From Candidatus Brocadia sp. (GTDB taxonomy: Bacteria; Planctomycetota; Brocadiia; Brocadiales; Brocadiaceae): a DNA stretch of 32,000 nucleotides. Of the stretch, positions 5,336-22,056 are shown piece by piece. Every line of letters begins with the position of its first letter. Positions within the stretch are counted from its first letter, which is position 1. Position numbers and translations under genes: made by a program. Location of the stretch: NCBI GenBank assembly GCA_021650915.1, contig CP091279.1:780001-812000 (forward strand), written 5' to 3'. The notes below the pieces were generated by a model. The model saw only the letters and a list, made by a program, of their open reading frames with translations. It made no database searches and had not been told where the DNA came from.

Positions 5336-5524
5336 ATGGAAAGTCCAAATATCATGACGATAAAGCAAGTCGCGGAATATCTCAAGGTAAGCCCACGCAC
5401 GATTTATAAGTTAGTAAAAACGGGCGGAATTCCTACCTTTAAAATAATGAACATGTGGCGCTTTGAGCAATCCAAAATTGACCAGTGGATACAAGATAAA
5501 AGTGAAAGTAATAATTTTAAGTGA
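5336..5524 (+). CDS. Small excisionase/MerR-type helix-turn-helix DNA-binding protein
   Basis: MTIKQVAEYLKVSPRTIYKLVKTGGIPTFKI..WRF....IDQWI matches the HTH_17/excisionase-family pattern. 62 aa, with a possible alternative start at 5354. Confidence 0.75.
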   Translation: MESPNIMTIKQVAEYLKVSPRTIYKLVKTGGIPTFKIMNMWRFEQSKIDQWIQDKSESNNFK

Positions 5525-5540
5525 ACTGGAGGTAAAGAAC

Positions 5541-5918: not shown

Positions 5919-5988
5919 TGGTCGCATCATTTTCGTGCGTCCTTTAAAAATTCTTCTACTTCACCAGAGAAAAAGGAGAGAACGGATT

Positions 5989-6538: not shown

Positions 6539-7546
6539 ATGGAAAACCCTATAATCAAAAAGTCACCATCCTCCAAGCTGGAGGAAACTCTGATAAACAC
6601 CTTTCCCCGGATTTGCACCGATTGTGGTAAATTAACAAACAAACAGTTTTTACTGACAAATCCCGTGCTGCAAAACACAACACTGAGCGAATTCATTAAG
6701 AATGCCAACACAAGCTATATACTGGCAAAATTGACGATTGAAGAGTTTTACGAGGGAGAACTGTATTTAATCTTTACCGTAAAAGAGGCTATTACGATAG
6801 GAAGTCTCTTGTTAACCCTTGAAGATGCCATAATAAGGGAAAATGCAGACAAGGGTATTTTTGAAGGTGATTGTACAGACGCATTCAAGGAATTTGCGAA
6901 TCAGGTCTGCGGTATGTTAGACAACGAACTAAGACCGAAGTTACCCAAGCCCATCCACCTGAAATTAACAAGCACGGTTCTCATGAACAAAGAGAACGCA
7001 AACACGGTACTCAGTGAAGAAATCTTGAATGAAGAACGCCTTATTCTGACGGCGACTATGCAGATTCTTGGCTTTGATGACGGCAAATTCATACTAAGTA
7101 TTTCCAAACTGGTTGGTGAAGAATTTTTTTGTGAGATCATCGCAGAGGATACCAAAAAGTTCAGGGGCACGATACTCGTTGTAGATGATTCAAATACTGA
7201 CCTCCGAATTATACGAAAACTTTTAGGTGATGAATATAAGGTATTGGTCACGGACAATCCAAACAGTGCACTCTCTAGGCTTCAAAAAGACCACATCGAC
7301 CTTGTTTTAATTGATGTTCACATGCCAGGTATTAGCGGGATAACGCTTTGTGAACGATTTAGAAGGAATGCAATGTCTAATGCAATACCAATTATAATAT
7401 GCTCCTCATCTCCAACGCAAGAAAACGTGATACAAGCCATTCGCGCTGGAGCGGAAGACTTTCTGGTTAAACCATTCACCAGACAAAAATTAATTGAAAA
7501 GATTAATAAGCACTTAATAAACAGAAACGTACTCTTAAATTCTTAG
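6539..7546 (+). CDS. Fusion protein: CheC/CheX-like N-terminal domain plus C-terminal REC receiver
   Basis: C-terminal REC is complete (VVDDS, LVLIDVHMP, ICSSS, LVKPF). The N-terminal ~205 aa contains DAFKEFANQVCG (D-x3-E-x2-N), but the downstream Pro spacing is not canonical. Confidence 0.7.
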   Translation: MENPIIKKSPSSKLEETLINTFPRICTDCGKLTNKQFLLTNPVLQNTTLSEFIKNANTSYILAKLTIEEFYEGELYLIFTVKEAITIGSLLLTLEDAIIRENADKGIFEGDCTDAFKEFANQVCGMLDNELRPKLPKPIHLKLTSTVLMNKENANTVLSEEILNEERLILTATMQILGFDDGKFILSISKLVGEEFFCEIIAEDTKKFRGTILVVDDSNTDLRIIRKLLGDEYKVLVTDNPNSALSRLQKDHIDLVLIDVHMPGISGITLCERFRRNAMSNAIPIIICSSSPTQENVIQAIRAGAEDFLVKPFTRQKLIEKINKHLINRNVLLNS

Positions 7547-7704
7547 GAAGGTATCATTTTAACCCGACGAACATACGAAAACCGCAGATTTCACAGATAA
7601 CGGGGATCTATTTTTTATAATCCGTGTTCTCTTTTTTGTTGTGACTATGCCACGTTATGAAATTTGTGACTTCCCTTAAAACATGATTGATGAGGACACC
7701 GAAT

Positions 7705-9504
7705 ATGGAAGACAACATGAATCTTATGGACGATGTTGAAATTGTTAAAGAATTTCTTGTCGAATCTAATGATCACCTGGACGACGTTGAATCCAAAATA
7801 CTGGATTTGGAAAAGAACCCCGAAGATGTTGATATTATTAATGGCATATTCCGTCCGATTCACAGCATAAAAGGTAGCGCTGGTTTCCTGGGTCTGAAAG
7901 ATATCGGTAAGGTAAGTCACGAATTAGAAACGCTTCTGGATGAAGGAAGGAAGGCCAAAATAATAATTACACCGGGGATCATTGAGATCCTCTACGAAGG
8001 CGTAGACCTATTGAAAAAACTCAGAGATGTGGTAGTTAAAAAGGTTGATAACACGAATGCCTCCATAGATGTAATTAATTACCACCCATTTTTATCAAAA
8101 ATACCTGCTATTTTAGGACACCATCAGGGTGTCGCACAAAAAGAAAAGACCATGGGTAACTCTCTAAAGGAAAAGCATATTGGCGAAATATTAGTGGAAA
8201 CTGGCGATATTAGCAAAGATCAACTGGAAATAGCATTACAGGAACAGGCACAGGGAAAACGATTGGGTGAAATATTGGTCGAAAAAGGAATGACTACCCC
8301 AGAAAAAATTAATGACGCACTCAAGGTCCAATCGGTGATAGGCAAACCATCTTCTGAAACGGTTAAGGTAGATACCCAAAAGTTGGATAACCTGGTTAAT
8401 CTTGTGGGTGAACTGGTGATTGCCAATGCCCTCATCTGTGAAACGCTGGGAAACATCAATCGCGGCGCAAACAAAAATTTTTCTCACCTCAACAAGATCG
8501 TTAAAGATATACAGGATCAGGTCATGTGCATGAGGATGGTGCCTTTGAAATCAACCTTCCAAAAGATGGCCAGACTCGTGCGGGATGTTTCCGCAAAGGT
8601 GGGCAAGAAGGTTCAGTTGGAAATTTCCGGGGAAGAGACGGAACTGGACAAGACAGTAATTGATGAGATCGGGGATCCGCTCGTACACATTATCAGAAAC
8701 TCAATCGATCATGGAATCGAGCCTCTGGAGGAGCGAATAGCGAAAGGGAAACCGGCAGATGGTCTTGTGCGGTTAAATGCCTTCCATCGGGCTGGCAACA
8801 TTGTCATCGAAATAGAAGACGATGGAAAAGGCCTTTGTAAAGAGAGGATTTTAAGAAAGGCAATTGAAAGGGGTTTAGTCGATGGAAATGCCACTCTCTC
8901 AGATCAGCAAATCTTTAATCTCATTTTTGCCGCAGGGTTCTCTACAGCCGAAAGGATAACCGATGTTTCAGGACGCGGCGTGGGGATGGACGTCGTAAAA
9001 AAGAATGTCGAGCGTCTGCGGGGAAAGGTAGAGATTTCTACCGTAGAAGGAAAAGGAACAAAAATTTCCATCAAACTGCCGCTTACTTTGGCAATTATTG
9101 ATGGCATGATTGTGCAGGTTGGTCCTGAAAAATACATCGTCCCCATGCTTTCCATTGAGGAGTCCATCCGTCCAAAGAAAGAAGACATATCTACCGTGCA
9201 ACAACGCGGGGAATTGATTAACGTGCGGGGCGATTTGCTCCCCATGGTGCGTCTCCATAATTTGTATAATGTTCCGCCGAAGAGAATGAATCCGTGGGAG
9301 GCACTCATCCTGGTCGTTGAAGGTGAGGGGCAAAGATGCGGGATTCTTGTCGACGATCTCCTCGGCCAACAGCAGATAGTCATTAAGAGTCTGGGAGAAC
9401 AGTTCCGCAATATCAGAGGCATTTCCGGCAGCGCTATCCTTGGTGACGGACGCATAGGCCTTATTTTGGACGTTGGGGGTATTATGAGTATGGCGTTGAA
9501 TTAG
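7705..9504 (+). CDS. cheA: Chemotaxis histidine kinase CheA
   Basis: Hpt motif HSIKGSAGFLG, dimerisation segment (LDNLVNLVGELV), HATPase N/G boxes (IRNSIDHGIE, DDGKGL, GRGVGMD) and a C-terminal CheW-like domain. Start ATG 7705 lies 8 nt after GAGGA; the ORF opens at 7687. Confidence 0.93.
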   Translation: MEDNMNLMDDVEIVKEFLVESNDHLDDVESKILDLEKNPEDVDIINGIFRPIHSIKGSAGFLGLKDIGKVSHELETLLDEGRKAKIIITPGIIEILYEGVDLLKKLRDVVVKKVDNTNASIDVINYHPFLSKIPAILGHHQGVAQKEKTMGNSLKEKHIGEILVETGDISKDQLEIALQEQAQGKRLGEILVEKGMTTPEKINDALKVQSVIGKPSSETVKVDTQKLDNLVNLVGELVIANALICETLGNINRGANKNFSHLNKIVKDIQDQVMCMRMVPLKSTFQKMARLVRDVSAKVGKKVQLEISGEETELDKTVIDEIGDPLVHIIRNSIDHGIEPLEERIAKGKPADGLVRLNAFHRAGNIVIEIEDDGKGLCKERILRKAIERGLVDGNATLSDQQIFNLIFAAGFSTAERITDVSGRGVGMDVVKKNVERLRGKVEISTVEGKGTKISIKLPLTLAIIDGMIVQVGPEKYIVPMLSIEESIRPKKEDISTVQQRGELINVRGDLLPMVRLHNLYNVPPKRMNPWEALILVVEGEGQRCGILVDDLLGQQQIVIKSLGEQFRNIRGISGSAILGDGRIGLILDVGGIMSMALN

Positions 9505-9632
9505 CTATCGGGGGTAGGGTGGGCATCGCCCACCAAAAAATAGGCAACCTAAACGAGATGCTTGTTGGGATACCCGGTTAACTGTTCATTTATCAGGCTG
9601 GAATAGTGATATTAATTTATTATGAGACTTCC

Positions 9633-10074
9633 AATAACGAATATCGAACAGGGAATAATGAATGTCGAAGGATAAGAGAATATTTGATCTTGAAGAACGC
9701 TTAATAGATTTTGCCGTCAGAATTATTCGGACAACGGAATCCTTACCAAAAACCAGGGTGGGAAATCACATTGCGGGGCAACTTATTCGCTGCGGTACAT
9801 CATCCGCTCCCAATTATGGTGAAGCCCAAAGCGCAGAATCTCGTTCTGACTTTATACACAAGATGAAAGTCTCCCTTAAGAGTTACGTGAAACAAAGATA
9901 TGGTTATTAATAATTGTAAAAGCCAATCTCATAAAACCAATGTCAAAGCTTGCACCCCTGATTAATGAGAATAATGAGCTTATTTCGATTTTTGTGACAA
10001 GTGTAAAAACCGTGAAACAAAACGTGGATAAGAAAACCTCATAGTTCGAAATTCCTTGTTCGATATTCGTTATT
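9633..10074 (+). mobile_element. Inverted-repeat-bracketed four-helix-bundle gene cassette (copy 1)
   Basis: AATAACGAATATCGAACAGGGAAT (9633-9656) and ATTCCTTGTTCGATATTCGTTATT (10051-10074) are reverse complements at 23/24 positions. They closely bracket the ORF. Confidence 0.6.
9662..10044 (+). pseudogene. Four-helix-bundle protein (23S rRNA intervening-sequence protein family), 1-nt frameshift
   Basis: Frame 1 gives ...SSAPNYGEAQSAESRSDFIHKMKVSLK and stops at 9910. From 9880 the -1 frame continues with the family-typical ELRETKIWLLIIVKANLIKP...ELISIFVTSVKT to the stop at 10044. One base is missing in CTTAAGAG (about 9878-9882). Confidence 0.8.
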
Positions 10075-10180
10075 TAACGGGACGGGCAGAACGATGCAAA
10101 TAGTATCAAATGTTTCAGGTACGAATGATCAATGGTTTAAAAAAATCGTTGGCCAAAAGACGGCCTCCTGATCCCCGTTC

Positions 10181-10200
10181 CCTGACACCTGACACCTGAT
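10181..10200. repeat. Tandem heptamer tract (CCTGACA x ~3)
   Basis: CCTGACA CCTGACA CCTGAT read directly from the sequence. Confidence 0.8.
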
Positions 10201-10210
10201 CGCTAAAAAA

Positions 10211-11646
10211 TTGGTAGAGTAGAAAAAGAGAGACTTGGTTAAAGAAAAAGCCCTCCAAATATGGTAAAAAATAGTTTTGATACAAGAAACTAAACCATAA
10301 AGAAAAGGAGGGCTATATGGGAGCAACCCCATGCACAGATGGTATCACAATAGAATTTGGTTGTCAAATTCGGGTTGAATTAAAGGACGGCAGCCTGGAG
10401 TCGATTCTCAAGGCATTTTGCAAGATACTGCCGGAGATATTAAGGGATTTTATTCAGAAGATCGTGGTTGGTTTTGGTGAGAGTGCGATGGCGCAATCAC
10501 GGAAGCCATTTTGCTGCGACGAATGTGGGAATGACAAGGAGTTTATCTGGAAGACGAGGCATGGAAAAGAGACGAAGATACTGACGGTCTTTCAGTGGTT
10601 GAGATTAGAGCAGTTGCAGGTGCAGTGCAAGAGGTGCGGTCATAAGATGTATATAACGCGAAAGCTTCTGGGGATGGAGCGGATGAAGCGAATACCACCG
10701 GAGACGTATCGGAAGCTTGGGCTGGTAGGATCGTTAACGACCTACCGGGTAGCGAAGAAGATCGTGTCGATGTTTGGCTGGACAGTAGACAAGATGACGA
10801 TATGGAAATCGGTACAAAAGACGGCAGCAGAGATAGATTTTCAACTCGACGAGAAGGGACTTCCCCTGGGAGAAGCAGACGGGACAGGGGTAGGGATTAA
10901 GGGGATAGCAAAACGAGGCAAGGAGCTCAAGGTCTTTGTGCAATACAAGAGCGGTGGAGGGGTGAGAGTGGCAGGGCTTGACATAGGGAATTACAACGGC
11001 AGTTGGGATACGCTGTTTGGTAAGAGTATTAAGGTGTTCAGGAAGTTTTCCCAGTTTCTTTTGATAACCGATGGCGACACCTCTATTTTGGATAGTTTGA
11101 AAGGTAAGATCAAGGTGCTTGTACAGAGATGTTTGTGGCATATTCCGTATCAGGCAAAGTATGTATTGTGGCAGGATGGGCTCAAGAGCAAGGGGAAAGA
11201 ATGGCTGGAGGTGATGTCTGAGCTTATGGAGGTCTGTGCGATACGGCCATTGGTTGATTGTCAGAAGACCATCGAGAAAATGATAGAGTCCAAGAGGAAA
11301 CGATTGGATGCGGTGATTCAGCATTGTTTGTCGAAGGGATATACTCATACCGCATCCTATCTTGAGAATGCCAGGCCTGATATGTTTACGGCGATAGAAA
11401 AGAGGCTCAATGGCAGAACGACAAGTAAAGTAGAGCGCGTCATGCGTACGGTTAACATGCGGGTGAATGTGAGCAAATGGAGTGTTGCCGGGGCGCTGAA
11501 CGTTACCAAAATTCGGCTTGCCTATTACTACAACGGCTTTGATGCGTGACAACTATACATTGGAGGACTTTTCTCAGGTCTCCACTTGACAACGCTACTA
11601 AAAAATTACTTATTTTAAAACTATATATAGGCCATTCTTATTTACC
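10211..11646 (+). mobile_element. Insertion sequence carrying the transposase; boundaries approximate and unresolved
   Basis: A single transposase ORF interrupts the che cluster. Only weak terminal IR candidates exist (for example ATAGTTTTGATACAAG 10271-10286 versus CTTATTTTAAAACTAT 11609-11624, 13/16). No clean target duplication found. Confidence 0.3.
10317..11549 (+). CDS. IS transposase (zinc-ribbon plus DDE-type core; ISLre2/ISKra4-like architecture)
   Basis: 410 aa. N-terminal CCDECG...CKRCGH zinc-ribbon pattern. Acidic motifs EADGTGV and LITDGDTSI, then QRCLWHIPYQ, resemble UPF0236/ISLre2-type transposases. Family assignment is from memory only. Confidence 0.65.
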   Translation: MGATPCTDGITIEFGCQIRVELKDGSLESILKAFCKILPEILRDFIQKIVVGFGESAMAQSRKPFCCDECGNDKEFIWKTRHGKETKILTVFQWLRLEQLQVQCKRCGHKMYITRKLLGMERMKRIPPETYRKLGLVGSLTTYRVAKKIVSMFGWTVDKMTIWKSVQKTAAEIDFQLDEKGLPLGEADGTGVGIKGIAKRGKELKVFVQYKSGGGVRVAGLDIGNYNGSWDTLFGKSIKVFRKFSQFLLITDGDTSILDSLKGKIKVLVQRCLWHIPYQAKYVLWQDGLKSKGKEWLEVMSELMEVCAIRPLVDCQKTIEKMIESKRKRLDAVIQHCLSKGYTHTASYLENARPDMFTAIEKRLNGRTTSKVERVMRTVNMRVNVSKWSVAGALNVTKIRLAYYYNGFDA

Positions 11647-11672
11647 ATAAAGAGTACGGGAGAAAAAATACT

Positions 11673-13832
11673 ATGAAAGTTACTTTAAGCACAAAAATTA
11701 TTTCGTTATTTATTATTGGTGGTTTAGTGCCCTTGGTCGCGATCGGCGTATTGAGCTATTACAGCTCAAGTAAGGCATTGAAAGAACAAGCATTTAATCA
11801 GCTAGCTTCTGTAAGAAATGTCAAACAAGCATTTATTAATGATTGGTTTTCAAAAAGAAAATGCGATGCGGTAACTCTTTCAAAAAATGAGATGGTTATC
11901 AATGCGACAAAGGAATTTAAAAAGGCATTTAATGAGCTGGGGGCCGAAAAAGTGCGAGACTTGTATATTACCAAAAATCCGTTCCCAGCCGGTAAAAAAC
12001 TGGAATATGTTGATGCACAGGACGGCAGCAATTATAGCAAATTACATGCACGGTATCACCCTGTTTTCAAACAGTACCTTGAAGAATATGGGTATTATGA
12101 TATTTTCCTTTTGGATGCAGAAACAGGGAATATCCTTTACACCGTTTTTAAAGAATTGGATTTCGGCTCCAATTTAGTTTCGGGACTTTACAATATGAGC
12201 AATATTTCAAAGTTATACAAGGATATTAATTCTACGAATGCCATTCATGAACAGAGTTATGCAAAACTGGTTGATTTTGAACCTTATGCACCGTCGAATG
12301 GAGATCCGGCGTCTTTTATCGCTGCCCCAATCTATGACAATAATCAAAAGATAGGGACACTCATTTTTCAAATGCCCATCAGTAAAATTGATGCAATCAT
12401 GCAGGATCGCTCCGGTCTTGGAGAAACAGGAGAGACCTATCTGGTAGGATCGGATAAACTGATGCGCTCCAATTCCCGATTTTCGGAAAAGCCAACTATC
12501 TTTGTCACCAGGGTTGATACTGAAGCCGTAAAGGAATCCTTAGCCGGTAAGGCCGATTCCAAAACCATCAGGGATTATCGCGGCATGCCTGTTTTAAGCG
12601 CATATGCGCCATTCAACGTACTCGGTCTAAATTGGTCCATTATAGCGGAGATCGATGAGGCAGAGGCGCTCAAGGCCGTCAATAATCTAAGGAAGTGGAT
12701 GATTATCATCGGCCTCGCTTCAGCAGGTTTTGTTGCTGGGTTGGGTATCCTTGTAATTAAGATTACCAGCAAGATATCAGGGCTCTTCAGAACGCTCCTG
12801 GATGATTTAACTGAGAGTTCAACGCAGGTAGCCTCCGCCTCAGAACAGATTTCGGCATCAAGTCAGAGCCTTGCCCAAGGCGCTTCAGAGCAGGCCGCCT
12901 CCATCGAAGAGACTTCATCATCCATGGAAGAAATGTCCTCCATAACCAAGCAGAATGCGGAGATTGCACATACGGCATCCGAGTTAGTAACCTCTTGTTT
13001 CATGTCTGCACAAACAGGCGACGAGTCTATCACGAAAGTGAACGATTCAATGCAGAAAATCAATGAAAGCAGCAACAACATCGTAAGCATTATCAAGGTT
13101 ATTGACGGCATTGCCTTCCAGACCAATCTTTTGGCGCTCAACGCCGCTGTAGAGGCTGCGAGGGCAGGAGAACACGGGAAAGGCTTTGCGGTGGTTGCCG
13201 AAGAGGTGCGAAATCTCGCACAGCGATGCGCCAGCGCTGCTAAGGATATTACGCAACTCATTGAGGACAGCGCAAAGAAGGTCACCTCAGGCACAGACCT
13301 TGTCAAACAATCCAGTGAAATTCTTAAAGAAATTGTTTCGAAAGCAAAGAAGGTTACCGATCTCGTAAATGAAATTACCAACGCCTCAAAAGAACAGGCA
13401 GAAGGTATTGACCAGGTCAGCAAAGCCATTACCCAGATGGATCAGGTTACCCAACAAAACGCAGCGAATGCCGAAGAAACAGCTTCATCCAGTGAGGAAC
13501 TCTCAGCACAGGCAGAAAGTCTGAAGGCGCTTGTGGATAGAATTGCCGGAGAGGTTGGAGCAGGGAAGGAGAATAGCGTGGTTTCGAGCCAGAAAGATGT
13601 TCAAGTAACGAAGAAACAGGTGTATGCTCCTTCAAACAAAAAAAACCGGTTTGTTCGGGAAAAAACAGACGGCAGTGCGATGAAAGTGAGTAAAGACAAA
13701 GGCCTTAAAGAGTCCTGGCATGATTCACAGGACGATACTTTGCAGGATGATAACGGAAGAATACATGCCGTACCGGCTTCAAAGTCTAGCCGTCTGATTC
13801 CCATGTCGGATGATGAATTTAAAGATTTTTAA
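11673..13832 (+). CDS. Methyl-accepting chemotaxis protein with periplasmic double-Cache-type sensor
   Basis: TM1 ([19 protein letters not shown]), a ~300-aa Cache-like region ([28 protein letters not shown]), TM2, and an MCP signalling hairpin ([37 protein letters not shown]). Ends in a long tail terminating DDEFKDF. Confidence 0.92.
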
Positions 13833-13948
13833 CAAGACAGTATTTCCAGTCGTTGCAGATCTACAACCAAAAATAACCGCCACGCTTTTCCCACCTTTGT
13901 AAGGTAGTGAAAAAATGGTAGAAAAACTTACCATAAGGAGATTGAAAC

Positions 13949-14353
13949 ATGGCAACTAAGTGGAGTGAAGACCTGTCGATCGGCGTAAAAGCAATCGATG
14001 AACAGCATAAAGGAATATTTAGCAGGGTAGATAATTTGCTCAACGCGATGAGGCAGGGTAAGGGTAAAGACGAGATCGGTAAAACATATACATTCTTAGC
14101 AGATTATGTAGTCAGGCATTTCAAAGATGAAGAGGATTTAATGGCCAAATACAACTACGATGGTTGTTCAAAGCAAAAGGAAGAACATACGCGATTTGTA
14201 AAAGAATTCTCTAGTTTAAAAAGGGAGTTCGAAACAAACGGCACAAGGCCAAATCTGGTAATTGATACACAACGAAAATTGTGTGACTGGTTGACAAATC
14301 ACATCTCTAACGAGGATAAAAAAATTGGCGTATTTTTGAGGGTAGCGGGATAA
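13949..14353 (+). CDS. Bacteriohemerythrin-like protein (single domain)
   Basis: W-x-x-x-L-x-IG-x-x-x-IDEQH, HFKDEE (HxxxE) and NHISNED (HxxxxD). The helix-C HxxxH pair reads QKEEH, so one ligand His is replaced by Gln. Confidence 0.85.
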   Translation: MATKWSEDLSIGVKAIDEQHKGIFSRVDNLLNAMRQGKGKDEIGKTYTFLADYVVRHFKDEEDLMAKYNYDGCSKQKEEHTRFVKEFSSLKREFETNGTRPNLVIDTQRKLCDWLTNHISNEDKKIGVFLRVAG

Positions 14354-14446
14354 CCCGTATATAAACGAAGCCTGAAAAATCAAAATGCAAAATAGCGAAT
14401 AAAATTCAAATACAAATTATCGCAGATACCCATGAAAGGAGAGCAC

Positions 14447-14959
14447 ATGCAAGCAGTGAAGGAAAAAGAGAGAAAACCGGGCGTTTCGGAGACGGTATTG
14501 CGTGAAGGAAAATACTTGACCTTTGTATTGTGTGGTGAGGAGTATGGTATAGAGATACTTAAGGTCAGGGAAATTATAGGCATTATGAACATAACACCCG
14601 TGCCTCAGACACCCGGTTACATGAAGGGAGTAATCAATCTCCGGGGAAAGGTGATTCCTGTTGTAGACCTGAGATTAAAATTTGGATTTCAAGAAGTGGA
14701 GCACACAAAGGAGACATGTATCATCGTCGTGGAAGTCATGAATAAACTTACAGGTATTCTTGTAGATACTGTCTCAGAAGTACTTGACGTCAGAGGTCAG
14801 GATTTGGAACCCGCACCCCATCTTGGAGATGGCATCAATACGGAAATATTTCTGGGTATGGCAAAGATAAAGAACAAGGTAAAAATACTCCTCGATATTG
14901 ATAAAATTTTAGGCACGGAAGAGATCAATATGGTTGAGAGTTTAATGAGTATAGGTTAA
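14447..14959 (+). CDS. cheW: Chemotaxis coupling protein CheW
   Basis: YLTFVLCGEEYGIEILKVREIIGIMNITPVPQTPGYMKGVINLRGKVIPVVDLRLKFG is a canonical CheW core. ATG 14447 follows AAAGGAGAG; the ORF opens at 14432. Confidence 0.92.
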   Translation: MQAVKEKERKPGVSETVLREGKYLTFVLCGEEYGIEILKVREIIGIMNITPVPQTPGYMKGVINLRGKVIPVVDLRLKFGFQEVEHTKETCIIVVEVMNKLTGILVDTVSEVLDVRGQDLEPAPHLGDGINTEIFLGMAKIKNKVKILLDIDKILGTEEINMVESLMSIG

Positions 14960-14993
14960 TTTTATTTTTTCATAAACACGGGTGATTTAAGGG

Positions 14994-15291
14994 TTTGAAG
15001 ATATTGAGGCTTGGCATCTGTCACGCGAATTAATCGGAAAAAAGTATATCTCTGACGAAGATGCTGTAGTTTGCCAGAGGCTATGGACTTAAGCGGCAGA
15101 CACCAGAAGCATCCGGATCGTCGACGCATAATATTGCTGAAAGTTTTGATTTTGATACAAATGTCGAGTTCGTCCGGTTCTTACGAGACGCTAAACGCCT
15201 TTACACGGAAGTTCAGAGCAAGCTGGAAGAATCCGTGCGGCTGTCCATGGGTTTATCAAATATCTTAAGAATTACGAAAAAAGCAAAATAA
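14994..15291 (+). pseudogene. Four-helix-bundle protein gene remnant (copy 2), N-terminally truncated and frameshifted
   Basis: FEDIEAWHLSRELIGKKY (family N-terminal FEDLxVWQ-like motif) in one frame. RGYGLKRQ...SSTHNIAESFDFDTNVEFVRFLRDAKRLYTEVQSKLEE (E.YGL..Q.RR...SI.SNIAEG....EF..FL pattern) in another, ending TAA at 15291. Confidence 0.6.
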
Positions 15292-15359
15292 CCCACCCTG
15301 AACCTGATAACCTGAGTGATTAGTTTTGCAATACTATTTAAGAAAAAAGGGAGAAAAAT

Positions 15360-17102
15360 ATGATTGGTAAAATGAATATGATGACAAGACTCATTGTCAC
15401 GATTGTCACAGTCATTGTGGTTGCAATGAGTATTCTGACGTATATCAATGCGAAAAGGCAAAAGGCACAGATGTTGGCTGAGGTGCGTACCCAGGCACGA
15501 ATGGCAGCAGACCAACTTATTTCTGCGAGAGCAGTAATCGCAGAGAAGCAAAAGGCAATTAATACCGACTCAAAAGGTAACTTTGAATTCAAGGGCGTGA
15601 TCCCGGCAGTTGTTGGGCGTGAGATTGCCGAACATTTCAGCCAAACGACCATTTTCAAGATGAAGCAGACGAGCATTAAGTACAGGAACCAGTCAAATAA
15701 GCCTGATTCATGGGAGGTACATCAGTTAGAAAGGTTTGAGAGAGAGCCAGGCTTAGCAGATACCTCAGAAATAACAAAATTAGAGAACGGCTCGACGGTC
15801 TTTCGGTTGATGGTCCCTTTGAAGATCGAGGAGGCATGCTTGAAGTGTCATGGAGACCCGGCAACAAGTCCGACCAAGGATGGCAAAGACATCACGGGCA
15901 GGCAAATGGAGAATTACAAACTGGGGGATATTCGTGGCGGAATAAGCGTAACTGCGCCGATGTCAGCCGTAAATGCGACAATTGCCTCGAATAGAAATTT
16001 CAACATCATAGGAAATGGAATTTACGTGCTTCTGGTAGGTACCATAGTCTTTTTCCTCACTCGAAATATCATCACCTTACTGAAACGACTGGTTTTTAAC
16101 TTAAGAAATGGCGCAGAAGAAGTTGCTTCGGCAGCAAACCAGATTTCTTCTTCCAGCCAGTCCCTTGCTGACGGGGCGTCGCAGCAGGCATCTTCCGTTG
16201 AAGAGACCTCTGCTTCGATTGAGGAAATGGCCTCGATGATAACGAAGAACTCCGATAATGCAAAGGAAGCAAATCAACTCGCAATTATGACAAAAACATC
16301 GGCTGAAAGTGGCAATGTGGCCATGGATACGCTGCAGACAACGATGCGGGACCTCAATTCAGGCAATGACAAGGTCCTTTCGATAATTAAGTCAATTGAT
16401 GAAATCGCATTTCAAACGAACCTTTTAGCCCTCAATGCCGCTGTTGAAGCAGCAAGGGCGGGAGAGCACGGAAAAGGATTTGCCGTTGTTGCAGAGGAGG
16501 TGCGCAACCTAGCACAAAGGTGTTCCGTTGCGTCTAAGGAAACTGCGGACTTAATCAACTCGAGGGTAGTAAGCACTGAGAATGCCGCAAAGATTGCCGA
16601 CAAATTTGCAGCCAATCTTAATGAAATCGTAACCGAGGCAAAGAAGGTAACAGACTTAGCTGGTGAAATTGCCGCTGCCTCGCAGGAACAATCTGATGGT
16701 ATCAGTCAAATATCCAAGGCAGTTACGTCAGTAGACACGGTTACTCAGCAAAATGCGGCAAACGCGGAAGAGTTAGCGTCATCCAGCGAAGAATTGTCTG
16801 CACAGGCAGAAAATCTGAAAGTCATTATACAGGAACTGGTCATGGAGATCGGGAATATTGATAATGATTCGAAGACTTCCAAAAAGTCACAATCTCATAC
16901 GTATTTCGAAAAGAAATTTCATCATTCCCTGAAAAATGATCCTGATAATAAAAGCAAACAGATGATGCAAGCAAAAAAAGCCAATAATTCTCCAAGGCCT
17001 GGTAGTAAGACAAATGGGAATAGCTTTAAAAAAACCGTGATCGCACGAAACAGGATATCAGATGAATTAATGCCTCTCAGTGATGATTTCAAGGATTTTT
17101 AG
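15360..17102 (+). CDS. Methyl-accepting chemotaxis protein with periplasmic heme-c (CxxCH) Tll0287-like/DUF3365 sensor
   Basis: TM1, then a ~180-aa periplasmic domain with CLKCH (15837-15851) in the context PDSWE...CLKCHGDP...[12 protein letters not shown], then TM2. MCP signalling domain is nearly identical in protein to the first MCP. Tail ends DDFKDF. Confidence 0.9.
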
Positions 17103-17117
17103 CGCCATGAGATTGTT

Positions 17118-17158
17118 GTTCAATGGGTGCAAATCAGTACATTTTGTACCCATTGAAC
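17118..17158 (+). other. Strong stem-loop just after the MCP stop (no U-run)
   Basis: GTTCAATGGGT (17118-17128) pairs perfectly with ACCCATTGAAC (17148-17158). It is followed by a second small hairpin, CGGCAGGAAATTGCCG. Confidence 0.5.
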
Positions 17159-17277
17159 GGCAGGAAATTGCCGTGATAACTAGATGAAATGAATACCGCG
17201 TTGAGGAATTGAATTACTGCGCAGGAATTTCTGCTCTGCTGTTTTGAAGGGAAGACTTGGAGGGGAGTGTTACTAAC

Positions 17278-17757
17278 ATGAATGATGTTCAGACTGCAAT
17301 TACTGTTGGCGTTGGCGATCTGAAGATTACGCAAGCGCCTAATGAATTAAAAACATTACTGGGCTCCTGCATTGGAGTTGTATTACACGACCCTATCAAC
17401 AAAATTGGTGGGCTATTACACGTAATGTTACCAAAAAATAATAGTAATGATTTAAAGATTACCAAGTACGCTGATACAGGGCTCCCCTTTTTTATTTATC
17501 AGATGGTCACCCATGCAGGCGCATCCAGAGGGGCTCTTTATGCCAAAATATTTGGTGGCGCAAAGATGTTCGAGACCAATGGCCTGTTTAATATAGGTGA
17601 ATCAAACGAAATAGAGGTACGACGAATATTGAAAGAAGAAGGAATCAGGGTAGTATCGGCGAAAACCGGTGGTACGAAAGGATACAATATTTTGTGCGAT
17701 ACAGAGACGGGTGAGGTAACGTGCCGTATCTTTGGTGAAGCAATCGTAATTTATTAA
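17278..17757 (+). CDS. cheD: Chemoreceptor glutamine deamidase CheD
   Basis: LKTLLGSCIGVVLHDP, GGLLHVMLP, AKIFGGAKMF and NIGESN are CheD signatures with the catalytic Cys/His context. ATG 17278; the ORF opens with TTG at 17257. Confidence 0.9.
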   Translation: MNDVQTAITVGVGDLKITQAPNELKTLLGSCIGVVLHDPINKIGGLLHVMLPKNNSNDLKITKYADTGLPFFIYQMVTHAGASRGALYAKIFGGAKMFETNGLFNIGESNEIEVRRILKEEGIRVVSAKTGGTKGYNILCDTETGEVTCRIFGEAIVIY

Positions 17758-17830
17758 TATCATTATAATGCCTGCAAAGCACCAAAATACAAGCACCAAA
17801 TCACAAATAAATTCCAATAAACAAAATCCA

Positions 17831-18340
17831 ATGTTCAAACAATATGATTTAGAAGAAAGAACATTCTGTTTTGCCAAGAATGTTACCCTTTATGTGAGGC
17901 AATTAACAAAAAATGTTTCAACCTTGGAACATGGTAAGCAAGTAATACGTGCTTCTGGTTCTGTAGGAGCTAATTATATTGAAGCCAACGAAGCCCTAAG
18001 TAAAAAAGACTTGTAACACTTTAGTTTTTTGAAAAATTACCATAATAACGATGTTGCCGCACGGTGTAAGGGCGAAGCATTTGCCATAAATTGGTATAAA
18101 TGTATTCATACCCCAAGCTGGCAAATGCTTCGCCCCTACTTTTTCAAAAAACTAAAGTGTTACAAAGACTTTATTATGAGAATAAAGGTATGCCGTAAAG
18201 AGGCAAAAGAATCTGCTTATTGGATAAGATTAGTAGTCGAAACAAATGATGAGCAATATAAACGAGAAGGAGAAAAGCTTATAAATGAGGCAACTGAGCT
18301 AAAGAAGATTTTTTTCACTATTATTTTAAAATCAACGTAG
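17831..18340 (+). pseudogene. Four-helix-bundle protein gene (copy 3) interrupted by a MITE
   Basis: N-terminal half MFKQYDLEERTFCFAKNV...GSVGANYIEANEALSKKD ends at a TAA created at the MITE junction (18014-18016). C-terminal half FIMRIKVCRKEAKESAYWIRLVVE...ELKKIFFTIILKST resumes after the insert in the same frame. Confidence 0.85.
18013..18163. mobile_element. MITE, 151 bp, perfect 24-bp TIRs, 8-bp target-site duplication
   Basis: TIR-L GTAACACTTTAGTTTTTTGAAAAA (18013-18036) is the exact reverse complement of 18140-18163. Flanking direct repeats AAAGACTT at 18005-18012 and 18164-18171. Inner IR at 18066-18085 / 18120-18139 (19/20). No coding capacity of its own. Confidence 0.88.
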
Positions 18341-18415
18341 TTTTACTTTTTAGATATTGTAATTTATTTGAAATTTGGTCTTTGCGACTTGGTCTTTTAG
18401 ATTATAAGCTTTTGT

Positions 18416-18440
18416 GTTCTTTGTAACTTTGTGGTTACTA
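18416..18440 (+). repeat. Solo copy of the CTTTGTNACTTTGTGGTT arm
   Basis: GTTCTTTGTAACTTTGTGGTTACTA closely matches GTCCTTTGTGACTTTGTGGTTCTA (20898-20921). It lies 27 nt upstream of the cheC ATG. Confidence 0.6.
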
Positions 18441-18466
18441 ACCTTAATAAAATAAAAGAGGTAAAA

Positions 18467-19072
18467 ATGAATATTACTCAAGAACGTATGAAGGTAATTG
18501 AAATTATGTCGCGGCTGAGTATCGATAGGGCTTCCAGGGCTCTATCCAAGACACTAAGAACCGGCGCCATGATTTCACTTTCAAATGTATACATAGCCGA
18601 TTTAAGCGAAACGACTGAAAGAATGAATAATGATCTCCGGGAAATGACGGGCGTTATGGTTGATTTTAAAGGGAATATTGGCTGTAAGCTTTTGTTCATG
18701 CTGCCGGTGAACGGTTCATTCATTCTCACAGACCTCTTTCTCAGACAACCAACCGGCACGACGAAAGAATATAATGAATTTACTGAAGGCGTAATTCAGG
18801 AATTGGGAAACATTCTTGCGAGTCATATCAGCAATGTGCTGGTATCTGATTTTGACGCTACCTTGGTGCCAGAACCACCACATGTGCATAATGATTATGC
18901 CGGAGTTATGTTTGCAAATCTGGTCATGGAACAAGGCATGAATGATGATAAGCTGTTGCTGATGGAGACAAAATTCGAAATTTGTAAAAATGAGATCGAG
19001 TGTTACCTTTTTTTAGTCCCGGAGGCGACGTCGTTTGTGAAGCTATTGGATAATATAGGAGTAAAAGTATGA
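18467..19072 (+). CDS. cheC: CheC-like chemotaxis protein (first active site degenerate)
   Basis: CheC-sized, two-repeat layout. The second site retains E-x2-N-x22-P (QELGNILASH...PEPP). The first site position reads KVIEIMSR and lacks D/E/N. ATG 18467 follows AGAGG; the ORF opens with GTG at 18431. Confidence 0.75.
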   Translation: MNITQERMKVIEIMSRLSIDRASRALSKTLRTGAMISLSNVYIADLSETTERMNNDLREMTGVMVDFKGNIGCKLLFMLPVNGSFILTDLFLRQPTGTTKEYNEFTEGVIQELGNILASHISNVLVSDFDATLVPEPPHVHNDYAGVMFANLVMEQGMNDDKLLLMETKFEICKNEIECYLFLVPEATSFVKLLDNIGVKV

Positions 19073-19461
19073 AAAAAATTTTAGTAGTAGACGACTCTAA
19101 AGTCATAAGGATGGTAATCAAGCGACTTTTGACACAACATGGGTATCAGATTGCAGGGGAGGCTGAAAATGGAAGGGCGGCATTTGAAAAATACAAAGAC
19201 TTAAGACCAGACGCCGTAACTATGGATATTATCATGCCAGAAGTTGACGGCATTCAAGGGTTGAAAGACATCCTATCCTTTGATAAACAAGCAAAAGTAA
19301 TCATGATTTCCGCCATAGACCAGAAAGAATCATTGCTGGAAGCCATTCGGCAAGGAGCGGCAGATTACGTGGTTAAACCATTTGAGGATGATCGGATGGT
19401 GGCGGCAATGAAGAATATATTTGACGAAAACCAAAAGGATGCGGGAGGCAGTAGGCAGTAG
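19069..19461 (+). CDS. cheY: CheY-like single-domain response regulator
   Basis: VVDDS, VTMDIIMP, MISAI and VVKPF are REC signatures. There is a 4-nt ATGA overlap with the cheC stop. Confidence 0.88.
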   Translation: MKKILVVDDSKVIRMVIKRLLTQHGYQIAGEAENGRAAFEKYKDLRPDAVTMDIIMPEVDGIQGLKDILSFDKQAKVIMISAIDQKESLLEAIRQGAADYVVKPFEDDRMVAAMKNIFDENQKDAGGSRQ

Positions 19462-19480
19462 GCCGTAGACAGTAGACGAC
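19446..19480. repeat. Tandem heptamer tract (AGGCAGT-like x5) spanning the cheY stop codon
   Basis: AGGCAGT AGGCAGT AGGCCGT AGACAGT AGACGAC read directly from the sequence. Confidence 0.8.
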
Positions 19481-19522
19481 GGTCTCTTAACAAGAATATT
19501 TTAACACTTTATAACAAATAAT

Positions 19523-19953
19523 ATCTGAGGAAAACAGGAAGGCAAGAAAGTGGGACTTGAATTTGAGAAATTGACAGATGATATCATTGCAGCATCCATT
19601 GAAGTTCATAAAACCCTTGGACCAGGTTTTCTTGAAGCTGTTTATGAAAATGCACTTTCACGAGAATTCGAAACTCGTGACATTCCTTATAAACGACAAT
19701 GGGAAATATCTATATTCTACCATGGAAATGAAGTAGGCAAGCACAGACTGTATATGTTTGTTTTTGATAAATTTGTAGTTGAATTAAAGGCAATAAAGGA
19801 AGTTACAAATGAGCATTTTGCAATTGTTCGTTCCTATTTAAAAGCAGTAAGACAAAGACACGGTTTGATCCTAAACTTTGCAAAACCAATTTTGGAAATA
19901 AAAAGAGTTATTTTTACAGAATAATATTCCTGATCTTCCTGCTTTCCTTAGAT
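19523..19953 (+). mobile_element. Inverted-repeat-bracketed GxxExxY gene cassette
   Basis: ATCTGAGGAAAACAGGAAGGCAAGAAA (19523-19549) and TTCCTGATCTTCCTGCTTTCCTTAGAT (19927-19953) are reverse complements at 21/27 positions. They abut the start and stop codons. Confidence 0.5.
19550..19924 (+). CDS. GxxExxY protein (PD-(D/E)XK nuclease-like small protein family)
   Basis: Family signature GPGFLEAVYENAL (G-x-x-E-x-x-Y), followed by ...VVELKA... Intact 124-aa ORF with a GTG start. Confidence 0.8.
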   Translation: MGLEFEKLTDDIIAASIEVHKTLGPGFLEAVYENALSREFETRDIPYKRQWEISIFYHGNEVGKHRLYMFVFDKFVVELKAIKEVTNEHFAIVRSYLKAVRQRHGLILNFAKPILEIKRVIFTE

Positions 19954-19981
19954 GTTATTTAAATTTTTAAGATGAATACCT

Positions 19982-20815
19982 ATGGACATCGATATTAACG
20001 ATAAAGAATTTGGTCTTTTTCAGCGGCTAATCTACAATAAAAGCGGAATAAATCTTACCCCTGCAAAAAAAGAGCTATTGAAATCGCGATTAATAAAACG
20101 TTTACGGGAGCGTTCATTAACTTCATTTAAAGAATACTATCAATACGTTACGGAAGAAGATACAACGGGCGAAGAACTGGTCAGTATGCTGGATTGTATT
20201 TCCACAAACCTCACAGAATTTTTTAGGGAATCGGCTCATTTTGATTTCCTGTCAGAAAATGTGCTTCCTGTCTTACTGGAGAACAAAAGAAAAAACCGTG
20301 AGAAAAAGATCAGGATATGGTGCGCAGGGTGCTCAACCGGCGAAGAGCCATATAGTATTTCTATGATACTGTCAGAACGTATAGAACAGCTTTCGAAATG
20401 GGATATAAAGATATTAGCTACCGATTTGTCAACCAGGGTATTAAAAAAAGCCACTCAAGGAATATATGCAAAAGAACGGTTGAGGGATATTCCTCTTCAA
20501 ATGCTCAACACTTATTTCAAAAAGGAATCTCATAATCTCAAAGACTGTTATCAAATAAATGATTTCCTGAAAGGATTGATTGCCTTTAGAAGGCTCAATC
20601 TGACCGATGAAATCTTTCCCTTCAAAGGGCAATTTGATTTTATATTTTGCAGAAATGTGATGATCTATTTTGACAAACAAACGCAGAGTGAATTGGTGTC
20701 AAAATTTTATAAACATCTTGCCCCAGAAGGATATCTTTTCATAGGACACTCTGAAAGCCTTGCCGGCACTGAAACCAGGTTCCGGTATGTACGGCCCACA
20801 GTTTATCAAAAGTAA
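19982..20815 (+). CDS. cheR: Chemotaxis protein methyltransferase CheR
   Basis: N-terminal helical domain (F..F..L......GI.L...K...L..RL..R) and SAM-binding RIWCAGCSTGEEPYSISM, IFCRNVMIYFD. Confidence 0.92.
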   Translation: MDIDINDKEFGLFQRLIYNKSGINLTPAKKELLKSRLIKRLRERSLTSFKEYYQYVTEEDTTGEELVSMLDCISTNLTEFFRESAHFDFLSENVLPVLLENKRKNREKKIRIWCAGCSTGEEPYSISMILSERIEQLSKWDIKILATDLSTRVLKKATQGIYAKERLRDIPLQMLNTYFKKESHNLKDCYQINDFLKGLIAFRRLNLTDEIFPFKGQFDFIFCRNVMIYFDKQTQSELVSKFYKHLAPEGYLFIGHSESLAGTETRFRYVRPTVYQK

Positions 20816-20837
20816 CCCTAGGCGTATTGAATAATGG

Positions 20838-20921
20838 GAAACCACAAAGACACAAAGGGCACAAAGAAAATTAAAGAATAGAGATTGACTTCTTCGTGTC
20901 CTTTGTGACTTTGTGGTTCTA
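20838..20921. repeat. ORF-less long inverted repeat built from 9-bp-periodic CACAAAG / CTTTGTG units
   Basis: Left arm GAAACCACAAAGACACAAAGGGCACAAAGAA (20838-20868) and right arm TTCTTCGTGTCCTTTGTGACTTTGTGGTTC (20890-20919) are reverse complements apart from 1 indel and 3 mismatches, with a 21-nt loop. Located between cheR and cheB. Confidence 0.75.
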
Positions 20922-20961
20922 ACGCAATTTCAAATAAGAGACGTTGTTAAGGAGCCCTGGC

Positions 20962-22056
20962 ATGGTAAAGAAAATAAAGGTGTTAATTGTGGATGATTCA
21001 GCGGTAGTTCGAAAAATATTATCCGCAGGCCTGAGCAAGGATCACGAGATTGAAGTTATTGGAACAGCGGCAGATCCGTTTATTGCCCGGGATAAAATTG
21101 TAAATTTAAGGCCCCATGTAGTCACACTGGATGTCGAAATGCCCAGGATGGATGGCATCTCCTTTCTGCAAAGATTAATGACCTATTATCCATTACCCGT
21201 CATTATGGTCAGTTCCTTGACGCAGGCTGGTTGTGAGACCACATTAAAGGCACTGGAAATAGGGGCATTGGATTTTGTTGCAAAACCATCACTGGACATA
21301 TCACATACGCTTGATGAAATAATAACCGAACTGGCGGAAAAGATAAAAGAATCCGCACATGTTAAAGTGAAAAAAAAAGAATATTTCAAGGATGCTGGCA
21401 ATAAGAAGACCAATACCCTGTCACCCAAAACAAATCACGCATTGATAAACAGCACACACAAGATTGTTGCAATAGGGGCATCGACAGGAGGAACGGAGGC
21501 GCTCAAGGAGGTGTTGATCCATATGCCATCAAACGCACCGGGAATATTGATTGTGCAGCATATGCCACAGTTGTTCACAAAATCCTTTGCTGACCGATTG
21601 AATTCTCTTTGTTCTATCGAAGTGAGAGAGGCGAAGAACGGAGATAGTATTATTCCTGGCCTGGCGCTGATTGCACCGGGAAACTATCACATGGAGTTAC
21701 GAAGAAATGGCGCCCGATATCACGTAATAACAAACCAGGCCCCCCCGGTTCGTCGCCATAGACCATCTGTCGAAGTGCTATTTGAATCTGTTGCAAAATA
21801 TGCTGGTTCAAATGCCGTTGGCGTGATCATGACAGGTATGGGCGATGACGGCGCAAATGGCCTTTTGAAAATGAAAGAGGCAGGCGCTAAAACGATAGCC
21901 CAGGATGAAGATAGCTGCGTGGTATTTGGTATGCCCAAGGAAGCAATCAAATTAGGCGCGGTTGATACGGTCGTTCCATTGAACAAAATTACCCCTTCCG
22001 TTTTATCATCGTTAGAAATGAAAACACCACAATCTCTCCTCCGGCAGAAGGATTGA
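20962..22056 (+). CDS. cheB: Chemotaxis response regulator protein-glutamate methylesterase CheB
   Basis: N-terminal REC (VLIVDDS, VTLDVEMP) plus a methylesterase domain (GASTGGTEAL, HMP, GMGDDGANGL). ATG 20962 follows AAGGAG; the ORF opens with TTG at 20944. Confidence 0.93.
   Translation: MVKKIKVLIVDDSAVVRKILSAGLSKDHEIEVIGTAADPFIARDKIVNLRPHVVTLDVEMPRMDGISFLQRLMTYYPLPVIMVSSLTQAGCETTLKALEIGALDFVAKPSLDISHTLDEIITELAEKIKESAHVKVKKKEYFKDAGNKKTNTLSPKTNHALINSTHKIVAIGASTGGTEALKEVLIHMPSNAPGILIVQHMPQLFTKSFADRLNSLCSIEVREAKNGDSIIPGLALIAPGNYHMELRRNGARYHVITNQAPPVRRHRPSVEVLFESVAKYAGSNAVGVIMTGMGDDGANGLLKMKEAGAKTIAQDEDSCVVFGMPKEAIKLGAVDTVVPLNKITPSVLSSLEMKTPQSLLRQKD

Follow-up and report, generated by a model that had tools for sequence, protein, structure and literature searches.

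Small-gene cassettes bounded by inverted repeats in the spacers of a Brocadia chemotaxis operon and in unrelated operons

A chemotaxis (che) cluster of Candidatus Brocadia sp. carries, in its gene junctions, small cassettes in which a pair of inverted repeats (the arms) brackets one short open reading frame (ORF). We analyzed these in a stretch of 32,000 nucleotides (GenBank assembly GCA_021650915.1, contig CP091279.1, positions 780,001 to 812,000; hereafter, the window). The ORFs encode either a four-helix-bundle (4HB) protein of family TIGR02436/PF05635 or a GxxExxY protein of family TIGR04256/PF13366, and the same lineages, with the same arms, were found in unrelated operons and phyla. In our view they probably belong to a widespread class of selfish mini-gene cassettes that have no promoter, ride in operon spacers, resemble the intervening sequences (IVS) of 23S rRNA and are tolerated by virtue of an RNA stem.

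Each of the five junction features (C1 to C5) of a preliminary description of this DNA was recovered in place by inverted-repeat search and protein profiles, and all cassette ORFs are, as described, on the + strand like the che genes. The architecture of an ORF bracketed by inverted repeats holds for C1, C3 and C4, but C2 has no inverted repeat; C5 is an inverted repeat without an ORF, as had been noted.

The C1 inverted repeat (left arm 9633-9656, right arm 10051-10074) is complementary at 23 of 24 positions, and 5 nt separate its arms from the start codon on one side and from the stop codon on the other. The left arm reads AATAACGAATATCGAACAGGGAAT with a 7-nt period, and the arm duplex has a dG of -34.9 kcal/mol (z = -9.3). 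The enclosed 4HB pseudogene (9662-10044; 49.2 bits against the TIGR02436/PF05635 profile, cutoff 24) switches frame at ~9880, where it lacks a single G that is present in an aligned intact copy of 88% identity. Repair of the frame gives a protein with 92% identity to intact homologues of 127 aa annotated 'four helix bundle protein'. Three distinct C1-type 4HB paralogues (P0290, P0310 and P0353), 86-90% identical to repaired C1, were seen on one 3.12-Mb contig. The C1-type lineage is highly multi-copy in anammox genomes.

In C3, the arms (17763-17826 and 18348-18407) are imperfect, as previously stated, with 73-80% complementarity, but they extend over about 51-57 nt rather than the ~40 bp given before. 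The left arm region (17763-17830) is made of GCACCAAAATACAA units with a 14-nt period (2x7). The 4HB gene (17831-18340) is split by a miniature inverted-repeat transposable element (MITE; 18011-18165, strand not applicable) of 155 bp, with 29-nt terminal inverted repeats that are 97% complementary and AGAC on both sides; the two halves of the gene score 28.3 and 28.0 bits against the 4HB profile, and removal of the MITE with AGAC in silico restores the reading frame. The MITE contains an internal GGGCGAAGCATTTGCC palindrome. A related copy occupies the cheY-cheR spacer of a Kuenenia che cluster (L008 13332-13474), and thus the MITE family is common to several anammox genera.

The C4 inverted repeat (19516-19541 and 19935-19960) is complementary at 23 of 26 positions. 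Its left arm (19516-19549) consists of ATCTGAGGAAAACAGGAAGGCAAGAAAG with an 8-nt period and holds the likely ribosome-binding site (Shine-Dalgarno sequence); the GxxExxY gene (19550-19924), with an open frame, and the right arm (19925-19960) follow. C5 (20840-20918) is an ORF-less hairpin in which arms of the GxxExxY type, (CACAAAGnn)3, pair at 26 of 29 positions (20840-20868 and 20890-20918) around a 21-nt loop (dG -37.5).

C2 (14985-15292) is the probable remnant of a bAvd-like 4HB gene, with multiple frameshifts, fragments in two frames and arms lost; its flanking inverted-repeat score of 19 is inside the control range given below. With stops removed, its frame matches PF05635 (E=2e-7; 31.6 bits, slightly below the Pfam cutoff of 33.8), and no match to a custom 4HB hidden Markov model (HMM) was obtained in single frames. 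The three 4HB copies of the window are dead by different routes, as proposed at the outset: a 1-nt deletion in C1, decay in C2 and a MITE in C3.

To set the arms against background, 209 ordinary genes were scored in the same way for flanking inverted repeats (99th percentile 25.9, maximum 32). The scores of C1 (43), C3 (38) and C4 (37) exceed those of all 209 controls, and the best five inverted repeats of the whole window are all within these che junctions. Shuffles and the 209-gene control exclude a chance or low-complexity origin of the arms. A six-frame HMM search of the window found 4HB and GxxExxY sequence in the che cluster only.

We compared the same junctions in seven related che clusters from six further assemblies (Brocadia sinica, L002; L003/L004; WS118, L005; a Brocadiaceae metagenome-assembled genome (MAG), L006; L007; and Kuenenia, L008). 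There, the junctions are either empty or occupied by a different cassette or by a hairpin without an ORF. Occupancy varies within Brocadia, and in the outgroups (L007 and Kuenenia) the junctions are mostly spacers of 15-50 nt, which gives the comparison of empty and filled sites that the preliminary description had called for. Between cheX-RR and cheA, the window has a decayed ORF-less (CACAGAT)n hairpin, B. sinica a clean ORF-less hairpin and Kuenenia a 23-nt empty spacer; the same arms enclose a GxxExxY gene in L003 and a decayed 4HB gene in L005. Between cheW and the methyl-accepting chemotaxis protein (MCP) gene, L002, L003 and L004 carry an intact 4HB gene of the 'MQNDKSKFKD' (MQND) type, and the window carries the different, decayed 4HB of C2. 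The possibility that C2 is a decayed copy of the relatives' cassette was ruled out by nucleotide alignment, which places it in a different 4HB lineage.

The cheD-cheC junction holds the C3 4HB in the window, an MQND 4HB in L006 and a GxxExxY gene with (CACAAAG)3 arms in L005. In L003 the C3 4HB lacks the MITE and has two nonsense codons, and in L002 a 62-nt spacer retains 25 nt of 4HB coding sequence. Between cheY and cheR, a GxxExxY gene is present in the window, L003 and L005; in L002 an intact bAvd-like 4HB gene lies between its two (CAGTAGG)n arms, and a decayed form of this cassette is found in L006. Between cheR and cheB, the window has the (CACAAAG)n hairpin C5, whose arms nearly match the ones around the L005 GxxExxY gene; L003 and L005 retain the right arm only, and L006 has an internal-deletion derivative of an MQND cassette. 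The history of these junctions is one of repeated colonisation, replacement and decay, not of a fixed arrangement. In Kuenenia, the cheY-cheR spacer also contains (CGTAAAT)n heptamers arranged as an ORF-less hairpin (L008 13760-13815), so tandem 7-nt repeats in hairpin form, as in 4HB arms, occur in an outgroup genus as well. Two small ORFs without Pfam match were seen in the WS118 cluster. One (L005 6833-7021), in a che spacer, has a 4HB-like N-terminus followed by a repeat (HSERSEESG), and the other (L005 11816-12043; 75 aa), between an MCP gene and cheD, has no arms.

Several remnants in the window can be read in the light of this comparison. The decayed cheX-RR-cheA hairpin (7580-7674, +), outside the range covered earlier, has (CACAGATnn)n arms of the GxxExxY type. 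An orphan right arm of the (CTTTGTGn)n type (18409-18436, +) was left by an earlier GxxExxY cassette, and the same cheD-cheC junction in L005 is where the GxxExxY gene with (CACAAAG)3 arms resides. An orphan left arm, (CAGTAGG)n (19447-19477, +), overlaps the cheY stop codon and derives from a bAvd-like 4HB cassette. This array has 2 copies in the window, 3 in L003 (13915-13933) and 8 in L005 (14015-14068). Slippage in it would alter the cheY C-terminus, since the array supplies the stop codon. The hairpin, the two orphan arms and the D68Y substitution in C4 (below) are all absent from the preliminary description. In the spacer between the hemerythrin gene and cheW, an A-rich array (14375-14416, +) resembles the left arm of an MQNDKSKFKD-type 4HB cassette and might, with low confidence, be a 4HB cassette remnant; L003 has a similar remnant, and the spacer in L006 is 46 nt.

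The arms, 25-80 nt in length, are tandem arrays that bracket the ORF within a few bases, for a cassette size of ~0.4-0.5 kb. In 4HB arms, 5-mers recur 7 or 14 nt apart; in GxxExxY arms, they recur 8-10 nt apart (peak 9), often with a CACAGA(G/T) core, in metagenomes of 35-66% GC. By this period, the hairpin at 7580-7674 and C5 go with GxxExxY cargo and the (CAGTAGG)n orphan with 4HB cargo, and the relatives agree. The left arm generally overlaps the ribosome-binding site or start codon, and in the MQND lineage it is at the same time the coding sequence of the N-terminus. The order hairpin-ORF-hairpin occurs at some loci. Nesting or tandem placement with older arms was seen in C3 with its orphan arm, in C4 with its orphan array, at the cheX-RR-cheA junction of L003 and L005, and at two further loci (L125 and L126).

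Promoter-like and terminator-like sites in the cassettes are at chance level. Given their position in spacers downstream of a co-oriented gene, expression is most plausibly by read-through. Minimum-free-energy folds of whole cassettes contain 33 (C1), 45 (C3) and 31 (C4) long-range pairs that enclose the ORF, in line with the long stems predicted for the transcript, and the arm duplexes have energies of -33 to -41 kcal/mol with z-scores of about -5 to -9. Selection at the RNA level, sought as an asymmetry between G·U and A·C mismatches, gave no signal (47 vs 47).

Such folds raise the alternative that the hairpins are domesticated modules of RNA processing or stability, which segment or stabilise the mRNA or couple translation, with the ORFs incidental. 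The persistence of ORF-less hairpins at several junctions and the 97-100% identity of the C4 right arm between species are compatible with this idea. A precedent would be the short tandemly repeated repetitive (STRR) sequences of cyanobacteria, which are 7-bp tandem repeats that form hairpins in spacers of co-transcribed genes (e.g., hupS-hupL) and were proposed to stabilise transcripts. However, the outgroup operons (L007 and Kuenenia) have 15-50-nt spacers without hairpins, close species differ in both occupancy and arm sequence, the ORFs are under purifying selection (below), the cassettes are common to several phyla and the arms lack G·U asymmetry. We consider this explanation rather unlikely.

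The same cassettes were found away from chemotaxis genes, so their repeated architecture is not specific to che operons. Even within che clusters, the MQND 4HB of the L006 cheD-cheC junction is 84% identical to that of the L002 cheW-MCP junction, and both have (CAAAATN)n arms. In B. sinica, a copy of the C1 lineage lies between cas2 and a cas6(-RT-cas1) gene (BAFN01000001; L130 2001-2384), with 88% nucleotide identity to C1. The two sequences become homologous with the very first nucleotide of the left arm, and 5' of it they are unrelated. At locus L133 of B. sinica, a 4HB copy adjoins a cas6-RT-cas1 gene. Members of the C4 lineage, at 75-83% protein identity, adjoin genes for encapsulin, FBPase-TPR (in Scalindua) and GAF-HD proteins, and at each of these unrelated loci they have the same CTGAGGAA...TTCCTCAG arms. 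Terminal repeats are kept within a lineage across unrelated loci and differ between lineages. The moving unit is the arms plus the ORF.

A role of the small genes as accessory parts of a host pathway, such as chemotaxis or CRISPR-Cas, fits the fact that several Brocadia species keep them at one and the same junction, and fits published reports of 23S_rRNA_IVP genes as functionally associated with cas loci. It is hard to reconcile with the presence of the same lineages in che, cas, encapsulin, FBPase and other operons, with different families at one junction in sister species, and with the state of the window copies, all of which are dead while the che genes have a ratio of nonsynonymous to synonymous substitution rates (dN/dS) of about 0.08. 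We regard such a role as highly improbable.

Wider censuses were made for the close MQNDKSKFKD subfamily (one lineage only) on the 4HB side and for 76 diverse metagenomic loci on the GxxExxY side. Flanking inverted repeats above the control 99th percentile were present at 23 of 32 MQND-4HB loci and 44 of 76 GxxExxY loci. The upstream gene is co-oriented with the cassette in 28/30 and 49/56 cases, respectively (pooled 77/86 vs a 69% baseline, p=6e-6); this bias is weaker for the downstream gene, and the median gap to neighbouring genes is ~60 nt. An Rfam scan at the gathering threshold detected rRNA neither in the window nor at the related loci (76 in one tally, 72 in another), and no Rfam family of any kind matched the window. 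With 0/76 scanned loci in rRNA, operon spacers rather than rRNA are the main habitat. In a scan of species-representative genomes, the MQND 4HB lineage was found at 60-86% identity in Brocadia, in ~20 MAGs of Dehalococcoidia and other Chloroflexota, in Nitrospirae, in several phyla of the candidate phyla radiation (CPR) and in one Methanophagales archaeon. Sequence searches returned at least 7,994 relatives of C1 (8,000 candidates scored) and 1,330 relatives of C4.

How the cassettes move can be considered from their boundaries. No target-site duplication was detected at 36 loci with clear arms (mean flanking direct repeat 1.94 nt vs a null of 1.68±0.23). No transposase was found in the cassettes, where the sole ORFs are 4HB or GxxExxY; the ISH6-like transposase nearby is a separate insertion. 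One possible explanation is that the cassettes are non-autonomous, MITE-like transposons moved in trans by a conventional transposase, with the 4HB and GxxExxY genes as passengers. The arms do resemble terminal inverted repeats with sharp outer boundaries, ORF-less derivatives exist, and insertion sequence (IS) and MITE activity is evident in the same region. We nevertheless find this account improbable: target-site duplications are lacking, the strong bias for a co-oriented upstream gene is atypical of MITEs, the same two cargo families recur world-wide, and lineage-specific arms with a period that tracks the cargo are hard to fit to one trans-acting transposase.

The cargo proteins offer a further route. 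C4 GxxExxY matches TIGR04256/PF13366 with 121.1 bits (cutoff 35). The AlphaFold2 model (pLDDT 96.2) has Cas4, MGME1 and lambda exonuclease as the nearest solved folds, and the modelling predicts, with high confidence, a minimal Cas4/lambda-exonuclease-like nuclease with a PD-(D/E)XK fold. A sequence search of the PDB with GxxExxY gave no match; the 4HB family has a relative there (2RLD, E=9e-15). With PADLOC, GxxExxY gave a weak partial match to the candidate family PDC-M36A (E=7.5e-5), and no match was obtained for the three 4HB proteins. The bAvd-like cassette protein of B. sinica (L002 13542-13904) matches bAvd and PHROG 3206 (Avd of diversity-generating retroelements, DGRs), the sole match to PHROGs.

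The frame of the C4 gene is open, but residue 68 is Tyr (TAT, 19751-19753), and 81 of 85 homologues have Asp at this position; E78 and K80 are kept. The gene is probably catalytically dead, given the Tyr in place of a near-invariant catalytic Asp. Judged by sequence, all cargo copies in the window are impaired (C1 by frameshift, C2 by decay, C3 by the MITE and C4 by D68Y).

Intact cassette genes in the relatives tell a different story from the dead copies of the window, with dN/dS of 0.07-0.25. The proteins thus matter when present, and the suggestion that they are dispensable, which had been drawn from the window's dead copies, is not supported. Synonymous divergence (dS) is 0.08-0.32 in the cassettes and 0.5-1.25 in the flanking cheY, cheR, cheW and MCP genes, i.e., 3-4 times lower in the cassettes, and nucleotide identity is 91-100% in cassettes vs 82-87% in the flanks. 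The low dS and high identity speak for lateral spread in recent times, or for gene conversion at one and the same site. Conservation at the same site in 3-4 species suggests that some residence is long and vertical.

These data bear on the alternative that a GxxExxY cassette homes or transposes autonomously. Its 124-aa nuclease would cleave empty sites that consist of a hairpin or carry arms, and a copy of the cassette would be introduced during repair, with the 4HB cassettes being a parallel RNA/DNA-binding system or parasites of the GxxExxY machinery. The predicted PD-(D/E)XK fold with near-invariant E, D and ExK residues, the CACAGA arm core conserved across metagenomes of 35-66% GC, cassettes inside pre-existing hairpins with the same arms, hairpin-ORF-hairpin loci, lower dS in cassettes than in flanks and the lack of target-site duplication all speak for such a cycle. 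The nuclease activity is a prediction only, however; the 4HB cassettes have the same habit but no nuclease, and moves to new junctions are not explained by homing alone. We treat it as a possible explanation, but a doubtful one.

We favor operon-riding, IVS-like cassettes as the explanation. Each cassette carries one small ORF, for an Avd-like 4HB protein or a minimal GxxExxY PD-(D/E)XK nuclease, and lands in a spacer 3' of a co-oriented gene, often inside or beside the arms of an earlier cassette, without target-site duplication. It spreads laterally between species and phyla and is under purifying selection while active. Later, frameshifts, nonsense mutations, a MITE or internal deletions erode it until ORF-less hairpins and orphan arms are left. 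We propose that the arms, once transcribed as part of the polycistronic RNA, pair into a long stem around the ORF. By analogy with 23S rRNA IVS, this stem may be an RNase III substrate, and the host operon would so tolerate the insert. Because arm period tracks cargo type, each protein probably recognises its own arms, which is consistent with the binding of RNA stem-loops by Avd and with the nuclease-like model of GxxExxY. Spread is probably via arm or hairpin homology, perhaps nuclease-stimulated, rather than via a classical transposase; recombination into hairpins or arms is favored over transposition given the lack of target-site duplication, cassettes in matching hairpins and the low dS.

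A more far-reaching version, which we hold tentatively and think less likely to be true than not, is that 4HB and GxxExxY cassettes are the smallest autonomous mobile elements (~430 bp, one 120-aa protein). Here, own-arm recognition may use 7-nt units for a pentameric 4HB and ~9-nt units for the nuclease. Integration may be targeted to hairpins and transcribed spacers and leave no target-site duplication, and the 23S IVS and STRR hairpins may be special cases or relics.

Several observations weigh against the favored explanation. Clear arms are absent at about 30-40% of loci, and several cassettes are kept at one site in 3-4 species. Cross-phylum assignments depend on MAG binning. No mobility enzyme was identified, and the 4HB cargo has no catalytic domain. 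The low dS could be due to gene conversion within the genome or to constraint at the nucleic-acid level. With regard to the RNA stem, both strands fold equally well with similar duplex energies, arm mismatches show no sense-strand excess of G·U (47) over A·C (47), and most are of the transversion type, unpairable on either strand.

The closest relatives among known systems are the ORF-bearing IVS of 23S rRNA (Leptospira, Coxiella and Xanthomonas; S23p = PF05635), and the likeness proposed in the preliminary description is supported by the shared protein family, the enclosing arms and heptamer repeats as in Coxiella. In the Coxiella IVS, tandem heptamers lie just upstream of the S23p ORF, the element is excised by RNase III and the ORF decays. 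In both cases the ORF is within a stem of complementary arms, the distribution is sporadic and horizontal, and the ORFs decay while the element stays. Unlike the IVS, which are located in rRNA helix 25 or 45, the cassettes are in spacers of protein-coding operons, and their design is also used by a second, unrelated cargo (the GxxExxY nuclease). The 23S rRNA IVS are excised by RNase III; excision of the cassettes may be supposed by analogy only. STRR hairpins are the closest described likeness to the ORF-less hairpins and orphan arms, but are described as repeats only, without link to a cargo gene.

In REPIN-RAYT systems, a gene likewise lies between inverted, hairpin-forming repeats, and ORF-less hairpins are extragenic. 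However, RAYT is a single-copy, vertically inherited Y1 transposase with repetitive extragenic palindromic (REP) sequences conserved genome-wide, whereas the cassettes have 4HB or PD-(D/E)XK cargo, are multi-copy and laterally mobile, and have lineage-specific arms. Identity with REPIN-RAYT was rejected, as the cargo is PF05635 or PF13366 and not a Y1 (IS200-like) transposase. Integron cassettes share small, promoterless, co-oriented ORFs dependent on an upstream promoter, imperfect palindromes and exchange at one site, but are arrayed at attI, and the present cassettes are scattered in ordinary operons. An integron origin was also rejected: inspection of the arms found no attC core (GTTRRRY), and no IntI was present among the profiled window ORFs (a scan that was not exhaustive) or in the che-locus gene tables. 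Free-standing homing endonuclease genes (phage T4 seg/mob) are similarly small, polymorphic, located between conserved genes and spread by repair, but they lack inverted periodic arms and, unlike the 4HB genes, code for nucleases. Finally, the RNA stem-loops to which Avd of DGRs binds adjoin a long-range RNA duplex. The match of one cassette protein (the bAvd-like one of B. sinica) to bAvd is a point of likeness, but the cassettes stand alone, with no reverse transcriptase (RT), template repeat or variable repeat annotated in the che-locus gene tables.

In the searchable literature, the two families appear only in rRNA IVS, in DGRs and as unexplained residents of cas loci. No description outside rRNA of arm-bounded operon cassettes was found, consistent with the earlier claim that this is not a described system. 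The TIGRFAM notes for TIGR02436 and TIGR04256 presumably mention the IVS location and large paralogous families. Neither the arm architecture nor the habit of living in operon spacers has, to our knowledge, been described. We regard the cassettes as a variant of IVS-type elements that resides in operon spacers across many phyla, and seemingly an undescribed one.

Gene identities in the cluster were assigned with Pfam and NCBIfam profiles. All genes are on the + strand, in the order cheY (5463-5918), cheX (5935-6516), cheX-RR (6539-7546), cheA (7687-9504), C1 (9633-10074), an ISH6-like transposase (10317-11549), a dCache MCP (11673-13832), hemerythrin (13949-14353), cheW (14432-14959), C2 (14985-15292), a Tll0287 MCP (15360-17102), cheD (17257-17757), C3 (17763-18407), cheC (18431-19072), the second cheY (19069-19461), C4 (19516-19960), cheR (19982-20815), C5 (20840-20918) and cheB (20944-22056). 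The product of the MCP gene at 15360-17102 shows 100% identity to proteins of Candidatus Brocadia sp., and all of its close relatives come from the anammox family Brocadiaceae; a look-up of the exact CheW sequence of the window gave no match. The ISH6-like IS (10211-11597), in the junction 3' of cheA, was not part of the preliminary description. It encodes a 410-aa transposase (193.6 bits against NCBIfam NF041731, under the cutoff of 240), lies between 8-bp direct repeats CTAAAAAA (10203-10210 and 11598-11605), and splits cheA and C1 off from the remaining operon; its site is uninterrupted in B. sinica. A perfect 22-nt inverted repeat AAAATCCCGAAGGGATGACATG, with arms 67 nt apart, is present at the window edge (35-145) and is probably another MITE-like element. 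A GC-rich palindrome, GGTGGGCA(T/A)(C/T)GCCCACC, is repeated in a number of che spacers from different species (window 9511-9533; L003 ~15296-15320; L006 ~15210-15235; L002 ~8890-8910) and forms a small repeat family of its own.

Cassettes of this kind are a systematic confounder of guilt-by-association annotation. The C1-type copy between cas2 and cas6 of B. sinica is an example, and the reported association of 23S_rRNA_IVP genes with cas loci may reflect a hitchhiking habit. The periodic arms provide defined cis elements for a possibly new mechanism of mobility or RNA processing, and the cassettes are compact natural parts, i.e., promoterless, self-insulating insertions that operons tolerate. 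If our interpretation is correct, it would explain in biological terms why PF05635/TIGR02436 and PF13366/TIGR04256, two very large families without assigned function, exist, and the long-puzzling ORFs of 23S rRNA IVS would represent one habitat of a general operon-riding element.

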